From the NCBI GenBank assembly GCA_964423615.1, contig CAYRFQ010000011.1, forward strand, positions 84,548 through 148,547: DNA of 64,000 nt, given 5' to 3'. Position 1 is the stretch's first letter, and the number at the start of each line of letters is the position of its first letter. The notes below the pieces were generated by a model. The model made no database searches. It was not told the origin of the DNA and saw only the letters and a list, made by a program, of their open reading frames with translations. The translations under genes were made by a program, and so were the position numbers. Below, piece after piece: positions 4,372 to 14,394 of this stretch. The stretch is from an uncultured Alcaligenaceae bacterium. Lineage in GTDB: Bacteria; Planctomycetota; Planctomycetia; Gemmatales; Gemmataceae.

Positions 4372-4884
4372 ATGTCTCCACAAAACACACACAATGACGA
4401 CGATTCGGGAAAAAATGTCCTTCGAGGAATTCAGGAAAAGATGGGCATAATTCCACACGTGTTTCGGGCCATGAACGCGTGTCCCGAAGTGGTGGAAGCC
4501 ACCTTATTGTTTGAAGAAGGTACGAAATCCTATCTCGATCCCAAGTTGTGGGAACTCGCTTATCTCAAAGCCAGTTCTCTGAATGGTTGCCAACCGTGTG
4601 TGAACTACCACGCCAAGAAAGGAAAACAGTCTGGACTGACTCCAGAGCAACTACAAGCTGTTGAAACTGGTGGATCAATGGAGTCTTTCGACGACCTGGA
4701 ACAAGGTGTCTTACGGTTTGTCGAACAATGGATCGTCGGAGGTTCGGTGGATTCTGAGTTAGTCCAGAGATTGTGTAGCGAGCTAGGAGAGAGTGGCCTG
4801 ACGGCGTTGGCCGCGACAATTTCTTTGGCGACATGGATTAACCAATTTACCAAAGTTGCCGAGATCCTCCGTCGAAGTCGCTGA
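4372..4884 (+). CDS. Carboxymuconolactone decarboxylase / AhpD-like family protein
   Basis: At 170 aa, with the motif ...LNGCQPCVNYH... (CxxC plus His), it matches the AhpD/CMD core and size. Confidence 0.55.
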   Translation: MSPQNTHNDDDSGKNVLRGIQEKMGIIPHVFRAMNACPEVVEATLLFEEGTKSYLDPKLWELAYLKASSLNGCQPCVNYHAKKGKQSGLTPEQLQAVETGGSMESFDDLEQGVLRFVEQWIVGGSVDSELVQRLCSELGESGLTALAATISLATWINQFTKVAEILRRSR

Positions 4885-5022
4885 TTCCTTCTGACTTCTC
4901 CGCCCCTCCCTTGTTTTGCTTTTTCCCATCTGTTACTTGTCTTGTGCATAGCCGTTCACGGATCGAACTGCTTTCTCCTTTGCGACTGCCACGATTGCCT
5001 TTCTAACAATTCGAAGAAAGGA

Positions 5023-7464
5023 ATGTATATGAACGCATGGATGCGTTTATTCCTTCTATCGGCATCGTTACTGTGCTGCCTCGGAACTTGCTACGCCCAA
5101 CAAGCTCCTCAGAAATTCCCCGTACGCGAACATCAACACGTTGATCTACTTCCCAAACAGGCCATCGCTCGCGTGGGTACGACACGTCTGCGACACAGTG
5201 CCGATTTGTTATCCGTTGTCCACTCTGTGGACGGTCGATTCATCGCTACGGTTGGAAAGGACTTTCGAGTGTGTGTCTGGGACGGTCGTCAATGGCATCT
5301 CGTCTGCGAGATCGCCGAGGCGAGAACGAATATTCATTCGGTGGCGCTCTCACCAGATGGAAATTATCTCGCAATTGGAACCGCAAACACGACGAAATCA
5401 CGGGACAGGCACGTCCGCGTCTATTCGCTGCCGTCAGGGAAACTTGTGTGGAAACACCAAGCGGATAGTTGGGTGATCACGACTCACCTTGCGTTTTCCG
5501 CCGATAACTCCGCGTTGGCTGCCTATGGTTTTGGCCAACTGTGTCGATGGGACACCAAGACTGGGCGGAAGTTAGGTTCGTTGAGGTGGGAGCAAGATGG
5601 TGGAACCGTGGCCATCTCGGCAGACCATCGGTTGATAGCCCATGACAACTCGCCAAGCTCGACCACCATCATCCTGAGAGACGCAAACTCCGGGAAAAAA
5701 GTCGGGAGGCTCGGATCGCACGACAATGTGATCTATACTTTTGCTTTCTCTCCGGACGGAAAGCGTTTGTTCTCCAGTTCATCCATTGGACCTGTGTTAG
5801 TGTGGGACGTGACGAAACAAACGATATGTCGGAAAATCTCCTCCGTCGGGGCGTCAAGTTTCGGATTCTCTGCCGATAGCCAGTTGGTGAGCATTCTGGA
5901 TGTAGGCGGGAGAGTATCGATCTGGAATCTCGCCACCAAGAAACAACTCTCGAAGTGGGCTCAGCGAGAGTTGTCAGCTCCCCTGGGCATCTCGGCAGCA
6001 GCCTTGTGTTCGGAGGGGAAGCAGTTGGCCGTTATCAAAACGGGTTCGCAAGTACTTTGGATGTATGACGTCCCAACAGGGAATCGGCTTTCTCCTCCAC
6101 GGAGCCATAATGGTCCGATCCGGTCGGTGGCTTTCTCTCCCCTCTCGACAACGGTTGCCGTCAGTTCGACCACGTTCGAATCCGCATTTCAGCCTCAGCA
6201 CGAACTCGCTCTATGGAACGCACAAAATGGAAAGCTCGAAAGGCCTCTCGAAAATCCCCCGATGACGTACTCGCGTGTCTTCGTGGATGTCATTCCGAAC
6301 ACGTTCATTGGCTCGACTTCTACTGGTTCGACACCAATTCTTTTCGATTGGAAGAATAACAAAAAGCTGGAATCTCCGTGGCAATCGAAGCCCCGACCAG
6401 ACCACAGTTCCACAGTCCCCCTCCCGGTTGCGGTTTCTCCTGGAGGTCTCGTTGCGTTTGCTTGTCACGACGACACCCTTCAAATCTGGAACTTAAAAGA
6501 CCGACGGCTTGTGGTGAAGTGCCCCAGTTTTTTACCCACCATCGGTTCGTTAGATTTCTCTCCCGATGGGCAAGAACTCGCCGTCTGTGGGGAGAATGGT
6601 GTAGTCTTGTGGAACTGGCAGTCAGGTGGTTGTTCTCCGATCTACCAAACGCCGAAGGCGGACCTCGTTCGGTATTCCGGGGACGGGCAAAGGGTGGCGA
6701 TCTTGGTTCGAGGGGACAGTTCACGAATAGCCCTTTGGAATCGGCAAACGCGACAACTCCGAGAGCGTTTCCTCGACTTGCCGATCGTTGGCGACTTGGC
6801 CTTTGCTCCCGATGGCAAAACGTTGGCTGTTGCTACGGCTGCAAAAGCCGATACTCTCACTCCGGAGTTGAGAATCTACGAAGTCGCCAGTGGCCAAATT
6901 CGCAGTTCCTTTCGGGGGCACACCGGGCTGATCAGCTGTCTGGCCTTTTCTCGGGATGGAACGCGACTGGCATCTGGTAGCGAGGATACAACGACCTTGA
7001 TTTGGAACGTGAGTCCATCGTCGGGGGCAAATCAAAAACGAAAACCGTTGACCGCCATCCGATTCGAGAAGTTATGGTCGCTTCTCAAATCTGAGAATGC
7101 CGGGAAGGCCTACGGGGCTATGCGAGTGTTGGTCAGTCATGGTCGACAGGCCGAAGGCCTCATCACCCAGAAACTCACTGAGGCAGTGACCATTACGCCT
7201 ACAGAAATTGATCGAACGATACGGCTTCTTGATCACAAAAGATACGCCTATCGAGAACGAGCGATGATTCGTCTCGTCCACCTTGGTCGAAATGCCATTC
7301 CGCAACTCCAAGAAGCGCTCGCCAAAGAAACATCACGCGAACTCCGAGAACGCATCGACACGTTGTTGGTGCGGATCCGGGAGAAGCCCCTGGAAGGAGA
7401 TCAACTTCGGACGACGCGGGTGAACGAAGTTCTCGATTGGATCAGGCGGTTGTCCAAGCCTTAG
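5023..7464 (+). CDS. Secreted WD40 β-propeller protein with conserved ~140-aa C-terminal α-helical module
   Basis: The ORF is 4942..7464, and the likely start is Met-28 (MYMNAWMRLFLLSASLLCCLGTCYAQQ, a signal peptide). It contains many WD repeats (e.g. VAFSPDG..., ...IWNL..., LAFSRDGTRLASGSEDTTTLIWNV). Its C-terminal segment is paralogous to the C-terminus of the 14834..17539 protein. Confidence 0.75.
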   Translation: MYMNAWMRLFLLSASLLCCLGTCYAQQAPQKFPVREHQHVDLLPKQAIARVGTTRLRHSADLLSVVHSVDGRFIATVGKDFRVCVWDGRQWHLVCEIAEARTNIHSVALSPDGNYLAIGTANTTKSRDRHVRVYSLPSGKLVWKHQADSWVITTHLAFSADNSALAAYGFGQLCRWDTKTGRKLGSLRWEQDGGTVAISADHRLIAHDNSPSSTTIILRDANSGKKVGRLGSHDNVIYTFAFSPDGKRLFSSSSIGPVLVWDVTKQTICRKISSVGASSFGFSADSQLVSILDVGGRVSIWNLATKKQLSKWAQRELSAPLGISAAALCSEGKQLAVIKTGSQVLWMYDVPTGNRLSPPRSHNGPIRSVAFSPLSTTVAVSSTTFESAFQPQHELALWNAQNGKLERPLENPPMTYSRVFVDVIPNTFIGSTSTGSTPILFDWKNNKKLESPWQSKPRPDHSSTVPLPVAVSPGGLVAFACHDDTLQIWNLKDRRLVVKCPSFLPTIGSLDFSPDGQELAVCGENGVVLWNWQSGGCSPIYQTPKADLVRYSGDGQRVAILVRGDSSRIALWNRQTRQLRERFLDLPIVGDLAFAPDGKTLAVATAAKADTLTPELRIYEVASGQIRSSFRGHTGLISCLAFSRDGTRLASGSEDTTTLIWNVSPSSGANQKRKPLTAIRFEKLWSLLKSENAGKAYGAMRVLVSHGRQAEGLITQKLTEAVTITPTEIDRTIRLLDHKRYAYRERAMIRLVHLGRNAIPQLQEALAKETSRELRERIDTLLVRIREKPLEGDQLRTTRVNEVLDWIRRLSKP

Positions 7465-7558: not shown

Positions 7559-8878
7559 CTATTTCGGACGTCGTCGACTATCGGGAATGAGACCTTCTCC
7601 AATCATCCGTCGAAATAGCACGTACTGAATGATCGAGTAATATCCCTCTTGTTTTTCTGGAACGACTACCATGGGAACAAGGCACATCTCGTCGCTTGTT
7701 TGTTCGCCGAACGTCACACGTTTGGGAGGGCTATTCGGGTTGAACGGGTTATTGTCGGAATTATCGTAGACCGCGTTGATCGTGAGCTTTGTTCCCTTCG
7801 GGAGCTTAAACGGCTTTTGAAAAATGTATTGGTCTTGCCAATCGAAGTCCCAATCTGGAATGCGGACGAGGACTTTCTTCTTCGCTTCCCCAGGTAGCTT
7901 GGCAAGCAGTTCAATCTTTCGCCCAATCAAGTGCATATGGGGAAAAGTCCCATAAACAGTCACGTCTGTTGGAAGTGTGGCGTGGGTGGTGATTTTGTAG
8001 TCGTTTTTGCCCGCTGGGATGTCGATGTGTCGGGTCCCAATGGTGAACGGAAGCAGCGCTTTTCCTTTCTTCTTGGTGAAATAAATTCCAACCTCCGATT
8101 GATCTTTCTCGACCTTTCCAGTCGGGTGATAGTGCATCTGCAAGATGAGATCGGCTCCACCAGGGAGCCACCACCCAACGTTGCCAGGCCAACGCCGAGG
8201 GCTCACGCCCGGTGCCCATCCGCCGAGAATCCCGATGGCAGGGACTCCAGGTCCCCCGAAGGATGTGTATCCTGGGCCTTTTTCTTGCTTGTCCCGTTCG
8301 CGTCCGATGCCGGATTTGTCGAGAAAGAACACCGAGTGATGAACGACCCTCCGGTTTCCAGGATGAAACTCGACTGCGGCAACCGTTCGATCTTCTTTCA
8401 AACCGGTCGGAATTGCAAAACACCGATAGACATCGGGACCATCGGCCGGAATGGTGAAAGGCTCTGGCATTCGCAAGATCAAATCGGGCTGGCCGAGGAC
8501 CCAACCTTTTTTGAATTTGGGAATGGCAGGCATGTCCTTGGGATCACCTTTCGGCGCTCCGGCTTTGGCCCATCGGACCAAAACATCCAATTCTTCGTTA
8601 GACAACCCGCGTTCATCTCGAAACTGTATGTGGCCACGTTCCGCCTTCCAAGGCGGCATTCGTTTGTTCTGGGTGACTTCGACAAGGAAATTCGCACGCT
8701 TCGCCGCGTCTTTGTAACTCAAAAGTGAGAACGGAGCTACTTCGCCAGGCCGGTGGCAACGAGCGCAATGCTGGAACAAAATCGGAGCAACGTCCTTACA
8801 GTAAGTTACTTGGCTTGCGTAGGCAGTGGAACCAGTAGTTATCGTCAAAAGAACGGTAAAAAGATAGTGTTTCTTCAT
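7559..8878 (-). CDS. PSCyt1-type heme-c domain fused to copper type II ascorbate-dependent monooxygenase-like (PHM/DBH-like) domain
   Basis: A signal peptide (MKKHYLFTVLLTITTGSTAYAS) is followed by CARCHRPGEVAPFSLLSY (a CxxCH heme site typical of Planctomycete cytochrome C). Downstream, VVHHSVFF, QMHYHP, FPHMHLIG and DEMCLV occur with roughly 65-85-aa spacing. That spacing matches the CuH (H,H,H) and CuM (HxH...M) ligand sets of PHM-like monooxygenases. The start is trimmed to Met-16. Confidence 0.55.
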   Translation of the reverse strand: MKKHYLFTVLLTITTGSTAYASQVTYCKDVAPILFQHCARCHRPGEVAPFSLLSYKDAAKRANFLVEVTQNKRMPPWKAERGHIQFRDERGLSNEELDVLVRWAKAGAPKGDPKDMPAIPKFKKGWVLGQPDLILRMPEPFTIPADGPDVYRCFAIPTGLKEDRTVAAVEFHPGNRRVVHHSVFFLDKSGIGRERDKQEKGPGYTSFGGPGVPAIGILGGWAPGVSPRRWPGNVGWWLPGGADLILQMHYHPTGKVEKDQSEVGIYFTKKKGKALLPFTIGTRHIDIPAGKNDYKITTHATLPTDVTVYGTFPHMHLIGRKIELLAKLPGEAKKKVLVRIPDWDFDWQDQYIFQKPFKLPKGTKLTINAVYDNSDNNPFNPNSPPKRVTFGEQTSDEMCLVPMVVVPEKQEGYYSIIQYVLFRRMIGEGLIPDSRRRPK

Positions 8879-8938
8879 GGGGCGACTCTCCTTCTCAACA
8901 GGGATCCGTTTTCTGGGGTGCATCTTGCGTTGTTCACT

Positions 8939-9538
8939 CTATTTACTTTGTCCAGGGAGAGCAGGAAGTGGACAACCAAAAGCCTTGGTCCGCTGGACTC
9001 GGGGTTGTTTCCCTGCAATGACGGCATCGAGGGCCTCGCGAAGGTCGCGTTTGCGAGGTTCCCTTCGACGTCGACCGTTGAGGAGATACCAGTCATCGAT
9101 CCGCCCGCCGTAGAAGAGCTCTCCTCGGTTGTTCAACAATGCGGCTTCCGGAACGCGTTTCGCCCGTGTGTGCTGCGCGAAAGTTTGTGCCGGGTCGAGA
9201 AGCACAGGAAAGGTGAACTTGTATTCTTTCGCGTGCTTACGAATATGTTTGGCAGAGGCTTCGGGGTCAGAAATGATACCGTAGAAAACCACTTGTTGTT
9301 TCGAGTATTTCTCGGCAATACGATTCATCTCAGGAACATACAGTTTCGACACCGGACACTCTGTGTCCATAAAGAACAGCACCACAAACTTGGAATCTTT
9401 CCACTCCTTCTCGGTGCGAAGTTGTCCATTCACATCGCGTAGCTGGAATTCGAGCTGTGTAGTCGGTTCCGCTTGACCAGAGATCTCTTGGACGGAAAGA
9501 AAGAAGAGCATGTAAGTAAGTAGACCCGCAGAAAACAT
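8939..9538 (-). CDS. Thioredoxin-fold redoxin (AhpC/TSA / thiol-disulfide oxidoreductase-like), secreted
   Basis: Residues FVVLFFMDTECPVSKLYVPEM contain a CxxS/thioredoxin-like active-site context. A signal-like N-terminus begins at the internal Met (MFSAGLLTYMLFFLSVQEISGQA), which I verified at nt 9538. The longer 281-aa ORF has a low-complexity N-terminal extension. Confidence 0.5.
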   Translation of the reverse strand: MFSAGLLTYMLFFLSVQEISGQAEPTTQLEFQLRDVNGQLRTEKEWKDSKFVVLFFMDTECPVSKLYVPEMNRIAEKYSKQQVVFYGIISDPEASAKHIRKHAKEYKFTFPVLLDPAQTFAQHTRAKRVPEAALLNNRGELFYGGRIDDWYLLNGRRRREPRKRDLREALDAVIAGKQPRVQRTKAFGCPLPALPGQSK

Positions 9539-10062: not shown

Positions 10063-11709
10063 ATGCTTCGTTGCCAGGTCACTTTTAATCGAGAAACCCA
10101 ACACATCCACCACAAAGAAGGTGCGTTGGAATTTGGTCGCGGCCCCAAGCGTCCGCCCGTTCCTCGTTGTATGATTCCTGATCCTTACGTTTCCAAGGAT
10201 CACGTACGAGTCCATCCGCTCGGCAACGACACCATCATGGTGGAAAACCTGAGCCGCAAACAACCGATCTGGCTAACGTCCGAGGAAGCCATTGAACCTG
10301 GCCAATCGTTGAAACTCTCGCTCCCCACGAGGTTGCACCTGGGAGATTCGGTCATCGAGATCGAGTCCGACGAATATGACACGGTCGACCGCGATTTCCT
10401 CCAGACGATCGCTGCGCCCGTGGTGCGACTCGAACGACATGGCGATAATCCCAGTCTCCTTCGTCTTGGCGAGGTTCCGTCCGCCGAAACGCTTGTGCAT
10501 TGGTTCGAGGCCGTCATCGCGGTCCAGCGAGCCGCCGCCGGGAGTCCGGAGTTCTATCAACAAACGGCTCAAGCTCTCGTCGACCTTGTCGGAATGGATC
10601 GGGGACTCGTTTTGCTTCGTCATGGCGATGCCTGGAAAGTCGTCGCCAGGGCGTTTCTCGACGAGGGAGGTCCTGGCAGAGAGTTTAGCCAAACGATCTT
10701 GCAACAAGTCATCGAGGAACGCCGGACGTTCTACCAATCGGTCTCCAAGATCGCTCAAACGGACAGCTTGCAAGGCGTCCAGGCAGTCGTGGCGTCGCCC
10801 ATCTTCGACGCTCGGGAGGCCGTGGTCGGCGTCGTCTACGGGTCCCGGAGTCGCGGGGTCATCCAACGGGACATTGGGACGCTCGATGCTCAGGTCGTTC
10901 AAGTCTTGGCGGCGGCAGTCGGCAGCGGCCTTGAGAGGATGGAACGAGAACAGGAAGCCAACCGTATGCGTGTCGCCATGGAAGCGACCGCGCACGCCGA
11001 TCAGGCCAAGAGTCAATTTTTAGCGAACATGAGCCACGAACTTCGGACTCCTCTCAACGCCATCATAGGCTACAGCGAAATGCTCCAGGAAGAAGTTGCC
11101 GATGATGGGCAGGATGCCTACATGCCGGACTTACAGAAAATCCACAGTTCTGCCAAACATTTACTCGCGCTGATCAACGACATACTCGACCTTTCCAAGA
11201 TCGAAGCGGGGAAGATGGAGCTTTCGCTCGAAACGTTCGCTCTCGAACGTTTGGTCGAAGACGTCCGAGCCACCATCGAACCCCTTGCGGCCAAAAACTC
11301 CAACACGTTCCAGGTCGAGACGCAACCGAACCTCGGAGAGATGAATGCCGACGTCACACGGGTTCGACAGTGTTTGCTTAACTTGATTAGCAACGCGTGT
11401 AAATTCACGTCCGAAGGAATCATTCGGTTCGAGGTTGGCCTCGTTGCCAACGGCGGACAACGATGGGTGCAATTCGTCATCCAGGATACCGGCATCGGGA
11501 TGACCCCCGAACAACTCCAAAGGCTGTTCAAACGATTCGGGCAGGCCGACGCGTCCACGACTCGAAAATATGGCGGGACGGGGCTCGGACTTGTGATCAC
11601 GCGGCATCTCGCTCAGATGATGGGCGGGGATGTCACGGTACAAAGCGAAATCGGGAAGGGCTCGACGTTTACGATGTATATTCCGGTGAAGGTGCAACAG
11701 GCGAAATAG
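10063..11709 (+). CDS. FHA–GAF–histidine kinase (sensor kinase with N-terminal forkhead-associated domain)
   Basis: The N-terminus has an FHA signature (FGRGP...[11 protein letters not shown]...N). The middle region is GAF-like. The C-terminus has HisKA ([23 protein letters not shown]) and HATPase_c ([12 protein letters not shown]...[13 protein letters not shown]...GKGSTFT). Confidence 0.8.
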
Positions 11710-12900: not shown

Positions 12901-14394
12901 TTACTCCGGCACAAACACGATGATCTCGACTCGTGCCGTCGGCAGCTTTTTCTTCTCCGGAACAGGGGTTGGCCCCACTCCGCAGCCCAGAGCTTTGACG
13001 CGACGATTCGACCAGAACCAGTATCCCATGCGGTGAATTTTGTGATGGTCTTTCACAAAACCCATCACGGCTTTCGCTTGTTCCTCGGTCAGGCGTTTCG
13101 CGAACTCCGGTTTCTGTTTTGGATCGGCAAAGACGGCGATGACGACTTCGGATTTCTTTTCTTTGTGAGTGTTCAACCAATCCCCTGCCGCACGCAAGTT
13201 CCGCTGGCCCATGCGAGTGATCGTCGCGCGATCGTCCTCGAAGATTTGATAAATCGGATACACAATCCGGTGTCTTTTGCAATTCGGACGAACCAGCTCC
13301 TTGGTCAAGTCCACGACGTAGTTACGCACGATCGGCAGGCGTTTGACGGCGTCCGAATTTTGCTTCACGGAGCTGACCATTTGGCGAACATCTTTGAGTG
13401 ACTTGACCGTCTCCTGGTAGGCCGTTTTGTCTTTGAGGAATTTACCAAGCGAGCCTTGGCCCTCTTCAATGTTGGCCAGAGCGAGTTGGATTCTGTTGAG
13501 CGACGATGTGAAGTCTTTGTAGAGTTTTTCGTCCGTCAAAAGCTTGCCGAGCGTCCCTTTGCCGTTTTGGAGATTATCGATCGTCACGTCAGCCTTGGCC
13601 AAAATCGTGTTCAGTTTGTCGGTGGCCTTCCGCAGGTCGGCGGTCGCCTTTCCGACCGGTCCGTCTCCTTCGTTGTAAGCGACGACAGCTTTGTTGGCTT
13701 CGGTGATGACCTTGTCGAGTTTATCGGTGGTCTGTTTGAGTTCCATGGCCACCGAGCCAATTGGTCCTTTGCCGGTGTTGTACTCCCGGAGGGCCTGGTC
13801 GGCACGGTCGACGACGGTCACAAGTTTTTTCGTTGCCTGGGAGAGATCCTTGGCGGCGCTGCCAATTGGTCCCTTTCCCTGCTCGTAGTTTTCGGTGGCC
13901 CGATCGACACGATCGACGATTCGGATGAGTTTTTCGCTGACCTGACTCAGGTTGCCCGTTGTTGTCGAAAGGTTGGCAAACATTCCCTCCTGGGGAGAGT
14001 TCGGTAAGAGGGCGTTTTCTCCGATGGCTTCGGCGGATTTGCCATTAACGATCCGGATGACGTTCGCGGACATAGGACCGTTGCTGGTGATTTGGGCATG
14101 GGAGCCCTTTCGGATGATTTTGCGAAACCGCCCCTTGAGGTGCAGGACCAAAACCACATGTCCTGGCTCTTCCAATTGGACCTCCGTCACTTCCCCAGCA
14201 TCGACGCCTTGGACTTCGACTCGGGTTCCGACCTCGACCCCCGATACGTCAGGGAAGCTCGCGCGGAGGCGGAAGGCATTTCCGAGCCAATCGCGACTTC
14301 CGACCAGGAACAGCCCGACCGAACCGAGTGCCAAGGTGACCAGGACCACGAGTCCCAAAACCGTTGCTTGCCAAGGGGTGAGTGATCGAGACAC
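12901..14394 (-). CDS. MCE/MlaD-family protein fused to C-terminal OmpA-like peptidoglycan-binding domain
   Basis: An N-terminal TM helix (LGLVVLVTLALGSVGLFLVG) is followed by an Mce domain (ASFPDVSGVEVGTRVEVQGVDAGEVTEV). Five ~28-34-aa helical repeats follow (YEQGKGPIGS..., YNTGKGPIGS..., YNEGDGPVGK..., NGKGTLGK..., EGQGSLGK...). The C-terminus resembles OmpA_C (...RLTEEQAKAV..., NRRVKAL..., RVEIIVF). Confidence 0.65.
   Translation of the reverse strand: MSRSLTPWQATVLGLVVLVTLALGSVGLFLVGSRDWLGNAFRLRASFPDVSGVEVGTRVEVQGVDAGEVTEVQLEEPGHVVLVLHLKGRFRKIIRKGSHAQITSNGPMSANVIRIVNGKSAEAIGENALLPNSPQEGMFANLSTTTGNLSQVSEKLIRIVDRVDRATENYEQGKGPIGSAAKDLSQATKKLVTVVDRADQALREYNTGKGPIGSVAMELKQTTDKLDKVITEANKAVVAYNEGDGPVGKATADLRKATDKLNTILAKADVTIDNLQNGKGTLGKLLTDEKLYKDFTSSLNRIQLALANIEEGQGSLGKFLKDKTAYQETVKSLKDVRQMVSSVKQNSDAVKRLPIVRNYVVDLTKELVRPNCKRHRIVYPIYQIFEDDRATITRMGQRNLRAAGDWLNTHKEKKSEVVIAVFADPKQKPEFAKRLTEEQAKAVMGFVKDHHKIHRMGYWFWSNRRVKALGCGVGPTPVPEKKKLPTARVEIIVFVPE
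13400..13950 (-). repeat. Intragenic tandem coding repeats (~28-34 codons ×5) within the MCE gene
   Basis: The G(K/D)GP(I/V)G(S/K) motif recurs in the translated protein, which implies periodic nucleotide repeats. The coordinates are approximate. Confidence 0.45.

Follow-up and report, generated by a model that had tools for sequence, protein, structure and literature searches.

A redoxin operon with a c-type heme domain fused to a PHM/DBH-like copper monooxygenase core in Gemmataceae: a candidate heme-fed hydroxylation system

On the minus strand of the window (the whole stretch of 64,000 nucleotides that was analysed) we identified a two-gene operon, encoding a redoxin and a protein of 439 amino acid residues in which a c-type heme domain is fused to a two-domain catalytic core of the PHM/DBH type. 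This fusion, already proposed by the initial annotation, is confirmed by family profiles, ligand conservation and predicted fold. We consider it probable, with a good share of doubt, that the two products constitute a periplasmic system in which the heme would feed electrons to a CuH site and from there to a CuM site for hydroxylation.

The gene structure is directly observed. A redoxin of 199 residues (9538..8939) is followed, after 60 nucleotides, by the 439-residue protein (8878..7559), both predicted to be exported, and each gene has its own Shine-Dalgarno sequence: AGGAG upstream of the redoxin start (ATG 9538) and AAGGAG just upstream of ATG 8878, the probable start of the monooxygenase within an open reading frame that spans 7559..8923 on the minus strand. 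No terminator was found in the 60-nucleotide gap. NCBI's gene call for this contig (GCA_050331035.1, Gemmataceae MAG), made independently, arrives at the same pair of products, in agreement with the gene coordinates initially reported. No paralogue of either gene was found elsewhere within the window, and the CxxCH motif of the monooxygenase is the sole one among the open reading frames of at least 250 residues.

8939..9538, minus strand: redoxin gene, 199 residues (Pfam AhpC-TSA and Redoxin; AGGAG; NCBI call)
7559..8878, minus strand: gene of the cytochrome c-PHM/DBH-like copper monooxygenase fusion, 439 residues plus stop (AAGGAG upstream)

The fusion protein starts with a predicted signal peptide followed by the heme domain, and covalent attachment of heme c requires export.

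8816..8878, minus strand: predicted Sec signal peptide MKKHYLFTVLLTITTGSTAYA, with cleavage after AYA, as read from the sequence
8549..8815, minus strand: predicted class I c-type cytochrome domain, residues 22-110 (Cytochrome_CBB3 in relatives; hhalign)
8753..8767, minus strand: heme-binding motif C38-A-R-C41-H42, kept in 353/353 relatives
8657..8659, minus strand: M74, putative sixth (distal) heme ligand, in M-P-P-W, kept in 353/353 relatives

The string CARCHRPGEVAPFSLLSY, in which a CxxCH motif had been claimed, is present, with the motif at residues 38-42 (positions 8753..8767). The four residues C38, C41, H42 and M74 are identical in all 353 relatives, the M-P-P-W motif is likewise invariant, and the Met-Pro of M74 aligns with the axial-Met region of cytochrome c6. 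The assignment of this domain to PSCyt1 (PF07635), also made initially, could not be maintained, as no match was obtained in the window protein at E ≤ 1, and PSCyt1 is absent among the families matched at E ≤ 0.01 in 27 relatives. By profile, the domain matches instead a class I cytochrome of the Cytochrome_CBB3 type: this family is matched in 25 of the 27 relatives (E ≤ 0.01) and lies above the gathering score in two of them (P0121 and P0123, 34-37 bits), with the window protein itself below threshold (16.3 bits, cut-off 27; E 0.013). Comparison by hhalign with cytochrome c6/c6A gave a probability of 83.5%, and the matches of the heme-domain profile in the PDB were weak (E 0.13-1.6). A Foldseek search with an AF2 model of the isolated, heme-free domain (pLDDT 76.7) found no cytochrome fold, a result that we treat as uninformative, since the fold probably depends on the heme.

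The remainder of the protein is formed by the putative copper-binding core, for which the following features were identified.

8039..8491, minus strand: predicted N-terminal beta-sandwich, equivalent of the CuH domain, residues 130-280
7655..8038, minus strand: predicted C-terminal beta-sandwich, equivalent of the CuM domain, residues 281-408 (Pfam Cu2_monoox_C; fold matches)
8336..8341, minus strand: putative CuH ligands H180-H181, corresponding to PHM H107/H108 (profile alignment; kept in 351 and 352 of 353)
8132..8134, minus strand: putative third CuH ligand H249 in LQMHYH, corresponding to PHM H172 (profile alignment; 352/353)
7931..7939, minus strand: putative CuM ligands H314-M-H316, corresponding to PHM H242/H244 (profile alignment; 352/353 each)
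7685..7687, minus strand: putative CuM ligand M398 in D-E-M-C, corresponding to PHM M314 (profile alignment; 350/353, two of the three exceptions being truncated sequences)

Cu2_monoox_C (PF03712) matches residues 298-401 above its gathering score (29.5 bits, cut-off 23) and is found in 26 of the 27 relatives. The initial expectation of a Cu2_monooxygenase profile was thus borne out for the C-terminal domain; for the N-terminal domain, Cu2_monooxygen (PF01082) was matched in 14 of the 27 relatives at E ≤ 0.01 (P0133 reaching 31.3 bits, cut-off 30), and the window protein gave no match at E ≤ 1. No NCBIfam model matched the monooxygenase. A search of the PDB with the single sequence gave no match and a family profile was needed; the latter aligns to PHM at E 3e-9 with VHH, LQVHY, HxH and DEMC in register, which places the six putative ligands on H107/H108/H172 and H242/H244/M314. 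The two-domain beta-sandwich core is present, and the predicted fold matches PHM and DBH across both domains. The ligand positions originally given, numbered on the 454-residue open reading frame, are right within 1-3 residues (HH 195-196, H 264 and also 266, HxH 329-331, M 413). Each of the six residues is kept in 350-352 of 353 relatives, and all ten heme and copper ligands together in 348 of them, from several phyla. With the heme residues at 353/353, such a ligand pattern is far beyond chance. Gln247, the equivalent of PHM Q170, is kept in 296/353.

The redoxin is composed of an N-terminal hydrophobic export/anchor segment, a thioredoxin fold and a C-terminal extension. It matches AhpC-TSA (2.6e-14) and Redoxin (4.2e-11) in Pfam, and its closest solved chains are 2cvb (1e-15), 3u5r and 2ywi.

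9347..9358, minus strand: redoxin active-site motif C61-P-V-S, with one thiol where thioredoxins have CxxC
8972..8977, minus strand: G188-C189, putative resolving/partner thiol, the second invariant cysteine

All 31 redoxin homologues have C61 and P62, and at least 90% of them S64; in 68 redoxins from the neighbourhood of related monooxygenase genes CPxS is predominant, with CPxC in a minority. The GC pair containing C189 is invariant in both sets and aligns in 2cvb, 3u5r and 2ywi. An identity as peroxiredoxin was rejected: the PxxxTxxC signature is absent, the sequence reads FFMDTECPVS with the cysteine at the first CxxC position of thioredoxins, and with the NCBIfam peroxiredoxin models it reaches 14 bits where cut-offs of 140-260 apply. 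A Sco-like Cys/Cys/His copper site was also considered and is weakened by H102, not conserved in the wider set. By sequence motif and alignment, the protein is a PrxL/2CVB-type two-cysteine protein (CPxS ... GC), which shares with PrxL or 'peroxiredoxin-like 1' (2CVB, 3U5R, 2YWI) the thioredoxin fold, the single active-site cysteine, the C-terminal extension and the GC pair; we take it to fall with Caulobacter PrxL in one class (CDD cd02969). The N-terminal hydrophobic segment suggests export, as for Caulobacter PrxL, which is periplasmic (PMC3322552).

The pairing with a secreted redoxin, pointed out from this single locus by the initial annotation, is much stronger than could then be known. 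We surveyed 83 related monooxygenase genes in 80 loci of Planctomycetota, Acidobacteriota, Armatimonadota and Verrucomicrobiota, and a homologous redoxin is adjacent or fused for 69 of them, in all four phyla: it is encoded next to the monooxygenase on the same strand in 36/83 and within the same open reading frame in 33/83. The remaining 14/83 have none nearby, so that not every member needs a redoxin in cis. Fusions are also found in 51 of 149 cluster representatives, and in every one of the 33 fused loci and 51 fused representatives the redoxin match precedes, on the N-terminal side, that of the heme-monooxygenase. All-against-all clustering of the open reading frames of the 80 loci gave no third conserved gene, ABC ATPases, TetR regulators, sigma factors, kinases and receivers being each present in at most 10 loci. 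Replacement of the redoxin by an EF-hand tail is unsupported, as 11 loci have both this tail and an adjacent redoxin. We also rejected an action of the redoxin on cysteines of the monooxygenase core, since many members linked to a redoxin lack both C153 and C399 (14/33 fused loci and 20/51 fused representatives).

PHM/DBH-type copper hydroxylases make animal neuropeptides and noradrenaline, and nearly all work known to us on PHM, DBH and tyramine beta-monooxygenase treats them as ascorbate-dependent enzymes of eukaryotes. The window protein has about 18-20% identity to PHM (1PHM, 1SDW), from which it differs by the N-terminal heme c domain, a bacterial and predicted periplasmic setting instead of ascorbate-fed eukaryotic secretory vesicles, and the absence of the PHM disulfide pattern and of the anchors R240, N316 and Y318. 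In contrast to dopamine beta-hydroxylase and tyramine beta-monooxygenase (4ZEL), it has neither DOMON nor C-terminal dimerisation domain, and the cytochrome c domain occupies the N-terminal position. Functional analogues in which a heme gives single electrons to copper are the cytochrome c-fused copper nitrite reductase, the cytochrome-LPMO pair of cellobiose dehydrogenase and the cytochrome b561/ascorbate relay of PHM and DBH; however, the cupredoxin nitrite reductase and LPMO are unrelated in fold, the b561 relay uses heme b across a membrane, and we know of no PHM-fold enzyme with covalently fused heme c among them.

In the mechanism that we favour, the exported 439-residue product would take one covalent heme c (C38/C41/H42, with M74 distal) and would contain a non-coupled two-copper centre of the PHM/DBH type, with CuH coordinated by H180, H181 and H249 and CuM by H314, H316 and M398. 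Single electrons from periplasmic or respiratory donors would enter the heme domain, reach CuH and pass to CuM, which would activate O2 and hydroxylate the substrate at a C-H bond. In PHM and DBH the copper sites are ~11 Å apart, and how electrons cross between them is still debated. The built-in cytochrome would take the job of ascorbate, which in the animal enzymes is regenerated through cytochrome b561, and the upstream redoxin (Cys61 ... Cys189) would act as its obligate thiol-redox partner, in electron supply, in the handling of product or substrate, or in maturation. Of this scheme, the gene structure, the folds of the domains, the conservation of the ligands and the link to the redoxin are shown here; we infer that heme and metals are bound, which way the electrons flow, that the reaction is a hydroxylation and what class of substrate is used. 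Ascorbate is an unlikely donor, because of the fused heme c and the bacterial periplasmic location, and it is reasonable to infer, as was initially proposed, a 'self-contained' hydroxylation system with a cytochrome replacing ascorbate. The name 'ascorbate-dependent monooxygenase', automatically given by NCBI, is probably a misnomer. Against a heme-fed scheme, periplasmic cytochromes c more often take electrons from enzymes than feed oxygenases.

The positions equivalent to R240, N316 and Y318, which in PHM anchor the carboxylate and backbone of the substrate (312, 400 and 402), are variable and occupied in the window protein by F, L and P, and position 312 does not commonly have Arg. Since these anchors are missing, the enzyme is not a peptidylglycine hydroxylase, its substrate would not be a C-terminal glycine, and the reaction may be other than a simple C-H hydroxylation. 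C-terminal TPR arrays, identified in 32 of 74 diverse relatives (43%), hint at a protein or peptide as substrate, an envelope protein or peptide being our best guess.

Could the redoxin, rather than the respiratory cytochrome pool, be the physiological reductant? A CcdA/DsbD/ScsB-type relay would keep its dithiol reduced, and two electrons would go into the heme to be metered singly to CuH and CuM. A redoxin-heme-CuH-CuM wire would match the domain order of all fused loci and representatives, and the frequency of fusion, about one-third, suggests a role in the catalytic cycle over one in assembly. In Caulobacter PrxL a disulfide of two distant cysteines is kept reduced by ScsB (PMC3322552). 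Nevertheless, CcdA/DsbD is not a conserved neighbour in the 80 loci, and a redoxin in cis is lacking in many members, those of the TPR and EF-hand types among them; we regard this explanation as unlikely. We also know of no precedent for electron transfer from a thiol to heme c without a flavin or metal mediator. A role of the redoxin in maturation, either keeping the CxxCH of the apo-protein reduced (ResA/CcmG/TlpA-like) or delivering or reducing copper (TlpA/Sco-like), agrees with its best NCBIfam similarities, StoA and ResA (all far below cut-offs), with a weak SCO1-SenC similarity in Pfam (E 0.012), and with the CxxCH pair being the only invariant cysteines of the monooxygenase, C153 and C399 both being missing in the fused forms counted above. 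We judge it rather improbable, however, as every other cytochrome is served by the general machinery of cytochrome c maturation, members without redoxin still keep CxxCH, the redoxin has CPxS in place of CxxC, conservation of the candidate Sco-like H102 does not extend to the wider set, and a single-use assembly factor fused to its client in one third of cases would be unusual.

The organic substrate itself may be questioned. In a periplasmic oxidant-detoxifying or oxidase module, the copper centre could pass electrons from cytochrome c to O2, superoxide or H2O2, with the redoxin removing peroxide or repairing oxidised thiols. The redoxin is called a peroxiredoxin in several annotation sources, H2O2 is a known reactant of PHM, and no substrate-related gene is a conserved neighbour in the 80 loci. 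Against such a module, the redoxin is devoid of the PxxxTxxC signature, the TPR fusions indicate a macromolecular target, and the full His3 / His2Met site is retained together with the Q170 equivalent, as in substrate hydroxylases. Moreover, the related Caulobacter PrxL showed no peroxidase activity (PMC3322552), and we hold this reading to be very improbable. That the protein would be a non-catalytic binding protein on a PHM/PNGase F fold, with the His/Met pattern as a relic, is barely credible, since relics do not remain invariant across phyla and 348/353 relatives keep the complete set of six copper ligands and four heme residues.

The monooxygenase is one member of a very large family of bacterial proteins, and a literature search, with subscription journals mostly uncovered and its silence therefore no proof of absence, found no experimental study of this family. 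Returning to the heme-fed copper monooxygenase, we put forward as tentative and rather doubtful the extension that this family comprises unrecognised periplasmic protein/peptide C-H hydroxylases in which redoxin dithiol, heme c, CuH and CuM form one chain without ascorbate; if true, such a four-centre chain would let O2 activation draw on the thiol or respiratory electrons of the cell. The eukaryotic PHM and DBH might also descend from this prokaryotic family.

A heme-fused bacterial relative would represent a natural answer to PHM/DBH chemistry without ascorbate and a soluble model, probably expressible in bacteria, with a built-in and optically visible electron-entry point, and the family offers thousands of sequence-diverse candidate C-H hydroxylases, whose probably misleading database name is corrected here. 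The solved and studied PrxL examples have no assigned function, Caulobacter PrxL having been studied as a separate ScsB substrate (PMC3322552), whereas the redoxin described here is genetically locked to, or in relatives fused with, a copper monooxygenase, so that the orphan PrxL/2CVB class gains its first firm functional partner. If the TPR forms act on proteins, Planctomycetota, Acidobacteriota, Armatimonadota and Verrucomicrobiota would have a new kind of modification, post-translational or of the envelope.

The interval flagged in the initial annotation is occupied by two minus-strand genes with an intergenic gap of 60 nt, coding for a redoxin and for a monooxygenase with a putative N-terminal heme c domain. 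They lie among the following genes:

Redoxin-monooxygenase gene pair and surrounding genes
4372..4884, plus strand: CMD/AhpD-like protein
4942..7464, plus strand: WD40 beta-propeller protein, flanking, convergent with the monooxygenase gene
8878..7559, minus strand: monooxygenase (439 aa), downstream gene of the pair, AAGGAG before the ATG
9538..8939, minus strand: redoxin (199 aa), upstream gene of the pair, AGGAG before the ATG
10063..11709, plus strand: histidine kinase (GAF-HisKA-HATPase), flanking, divergent from the redoxin gene
12901..14394, minus strand: MlaD-domain protein

Since no terminator-like site was found in the gap, the two genes look co-transcribed. A Gemmataceae MAG contig (GCA_050331035.1) carries identical redoxin and monooxygenase proteins with the same gene calls; the NCBI product names are "redoxin domain-containing protein" (199 aa) and "ascorbate-dependent monooxygenase" (439 aa), and the copper domain is already recognised by automated annotation. 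The 265-aa antisense ORF inside the monooxygenase gene (7931..8728, plus strand) was rejected as a gene, for ORFs like it form a cluster spanning 76 loci only as a by-product of sense-strand conservation.

The linkage to the redoxin is the strongest new result. We surveyed 83 monooxygenase genes in 80 related genome loci from Planctomycetota, Acidobacteriota (Bryobacterales), Armatimonadota and Verrucomicrobiota, and the pairing proposed in the initial annotation recurs widely:

Position of the redoxin relative to 83 monooxygenase genes
36 genes: redoxin adjacent, nearly always upstream and on the monooxygenase strand
33 genes: redoxin fused within one ORF, domain order redoxin-cytochrome-CuH-CuM
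14 genes: no redoxin nearby

The fusion is also present in 51 of the 149 representatives of 50%-identity clusters, and no conserved neighbour besides the redoxin was found among the 80 loci. Neither the CMD/AhpD-like gene, 2.7 kb from the monooxygenase gene and coding for a further thiol-redox protein (CxxC motif NGCQPCVNYH), nor the gene of the large WD40 protein (811-840 aa, with a hydrophobic segment at the N-terminus) is conserved beside the monooxygenase homologues of this set. About 6 of the 80 loci have kinases or receiver proteins less than 6 kb away, possibly by chance, and the MlaD-domain protein contains several internal repeats of ~40 aa with GKGPIGS. Five loci (L012, L026, L051, L061 and L039) have GTDB record titles such as "Klebsiella sp.", "Janthinobacterium lividum", "archaeon" and "Actinomycetes"; these MAG bins look mislabelled, as their gene is otherwise seen in Planctomycetota, Verrucomicrobiota and Armatimonadota.

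A copper core like that of PHM and DBH, also proposed initially, is borne out by domain, ligands and fold. Cu2_monoox_C (Pfam) matches residues 298-401 with 29.5 bits (cut-off 23), and there is no Pfam match to the N-terminal Cu2_monooxygen domain in the window protein; among 27 relatives at ~50% identity, the two domains match 26 and 14, respectively. An AlphaFold2 model built on the alignment of these relatives (mean pLDDT 83.9) retrieved, by Foldseek against the PDB, human DBH at 1.6e-13 and around thirty PHM entries at about 1e-12 to 1e-8, the matches spanning ~300 columns with a target-normalised TM of ~0.66. The family profile found PHM at E 3e-9, and its alignment with PHM places all six ligands:

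Copper ligands from the family profile-PHM alignment
H180-H181, motif VHH: PHM H107/H108, CuH
H249, motif LQxHY: PHM H172, CuH
H314/H316, motif HxH: PHM H242/H244, CuM
M398, motif DEMC: PHM M314, CuM

When the window protein was aligned with 269 proteins from databases and 83 ORFs of the genome loci (353 sequences in all), each copper ligand was kept in 350-352, which answers the initial question of ligand conservation, and all ten heme and copper residues together in 348. The equivalent of PHM Q170 is retained in 296/353; the positions matching the PHM substrate anchors (R240, N316, Y318) vary, arginine not being among their common residues, and conservation is also lacking at the PHM-like cysteines C153 and C399. 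This pattern argues for catalytic machinery of PHM/DBH type and a substrate pocket other than that of peptidylglycine hydroxylase.

The case for a putative heme c domain at the N-terminus rests on an invariant CxxCH...MPPW, above-threshold Pfam matches in relatives and a plausible Sec signal peptide, read by eye. Residues 35-105 give only sub-threshold cytochrome matches; Cytochrome_CBB3 matches 25 of the 27 relatives, and more distant ones exceed its gathering score. C38, C41, H42 and M74 are present in 353/353 sequences. The heme c motif of the initially proposed PSCyt1 domain thus stands, whereas the PSCyt1 label falls, as Pfam gave no such match. Residues 22-110 are predicted to be helical, with CxxCH at the end of the first helix and a C-terminal helix, a layout that fits a class I cytochrome c. 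Four of the five weak PDB matches of a heme-domain-only profile are c-type cytochromes; hhalign against Arabidopsis cytochrome c6A put CxxCH and the Met-Pro motif in register in a 73-column alignment (probability 83.5%); this target was chosen after these matches had been seen, and the E-value carries no correction for searching a database. Foldseek with the isolated, heme-free domain model returned nothing.

The most economical reading, from what is known of the family, would be a periplasmic hydroxylase in which the heme c domain provides one-electron entry to CuH and CuM in place of ascorbate.

The redoxin is matched by AhpC-TSA and Redoxin (Pfam). Its active site, C61-P-V-S, has a single cysteine at the first CxxC position of thioredoxins, and the second invariant cysteine (G188-C189) ends a C-terminal extension. 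This layout, lacking peroxiredoxin residues, led us to reject a peroxiredoxin identity. Among solved structures, the redoxin is closest to 2CVB, 3U5R and 2YWI, all from structural genomics, with alignments that run through the GC motif. The protein resembles what we take to be the "peroxiredoxin-like 1" class of CDD, in which Caulobacter PrxL is presumably also placed. Two distant cysteines of the periplasmic PrxL join in a disulfide, and the DsbD-like ScsB keeps the protein reduced (PMC3322552).

Electron supply to the monooxygenase through a thiol relay is one role considered for the redoxin, and fits the domain order of the fusions. A role in monooxygenase maturation would agree with the heme CxxCH pair being the only invariant cysteines of the enzyme, although general maturation systems exist and CxxCH is kept in members without redoxin. 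The redoxin might otherwise handle substrate, product or oxidants; against peroxide removal stand the absent peroxiredoxin residues and the negative assay of PrxL, whose peroxidase activity was not detectable (PMC3322552).

Searched exhaustively, 1.84 billion cluster representatives yielded 17,906 proteins at E <= 1e-3, the weaker of which may match by the cytochrome domain alone, and 3,876 at E <= 1e-30. Among 74 diverse representatives, 32 have C-terminal TPR arrays and 21 an N-terminal redoxin; EF-hand tails occur in other members, including many close relatives, and single relatives show fusion to an FGE-sulfatase domain (P0168) or DUF3471 (P0133), or tandem duplication of the whole enzyme (P0121). 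Some genomes have tandem or multiple monooxygenase copies. In the literature searched, with incomplete coverage, we found neither the heme fusion nor the redoxin linkage nor any bacterial member described or characterised.

TPR arrays are characteristically combined with hydroxylase domains in enzymes that hydroxylate proteins, collagen prolyl 4-hydroxylase and aspartyl beta-hydroxylase among them. By this analogy, the TPR arrays of the relatives would be the only clue to the substrate class; the window monooxygenase itself, which has no TPR, does not stand out within its large, unstudied family.
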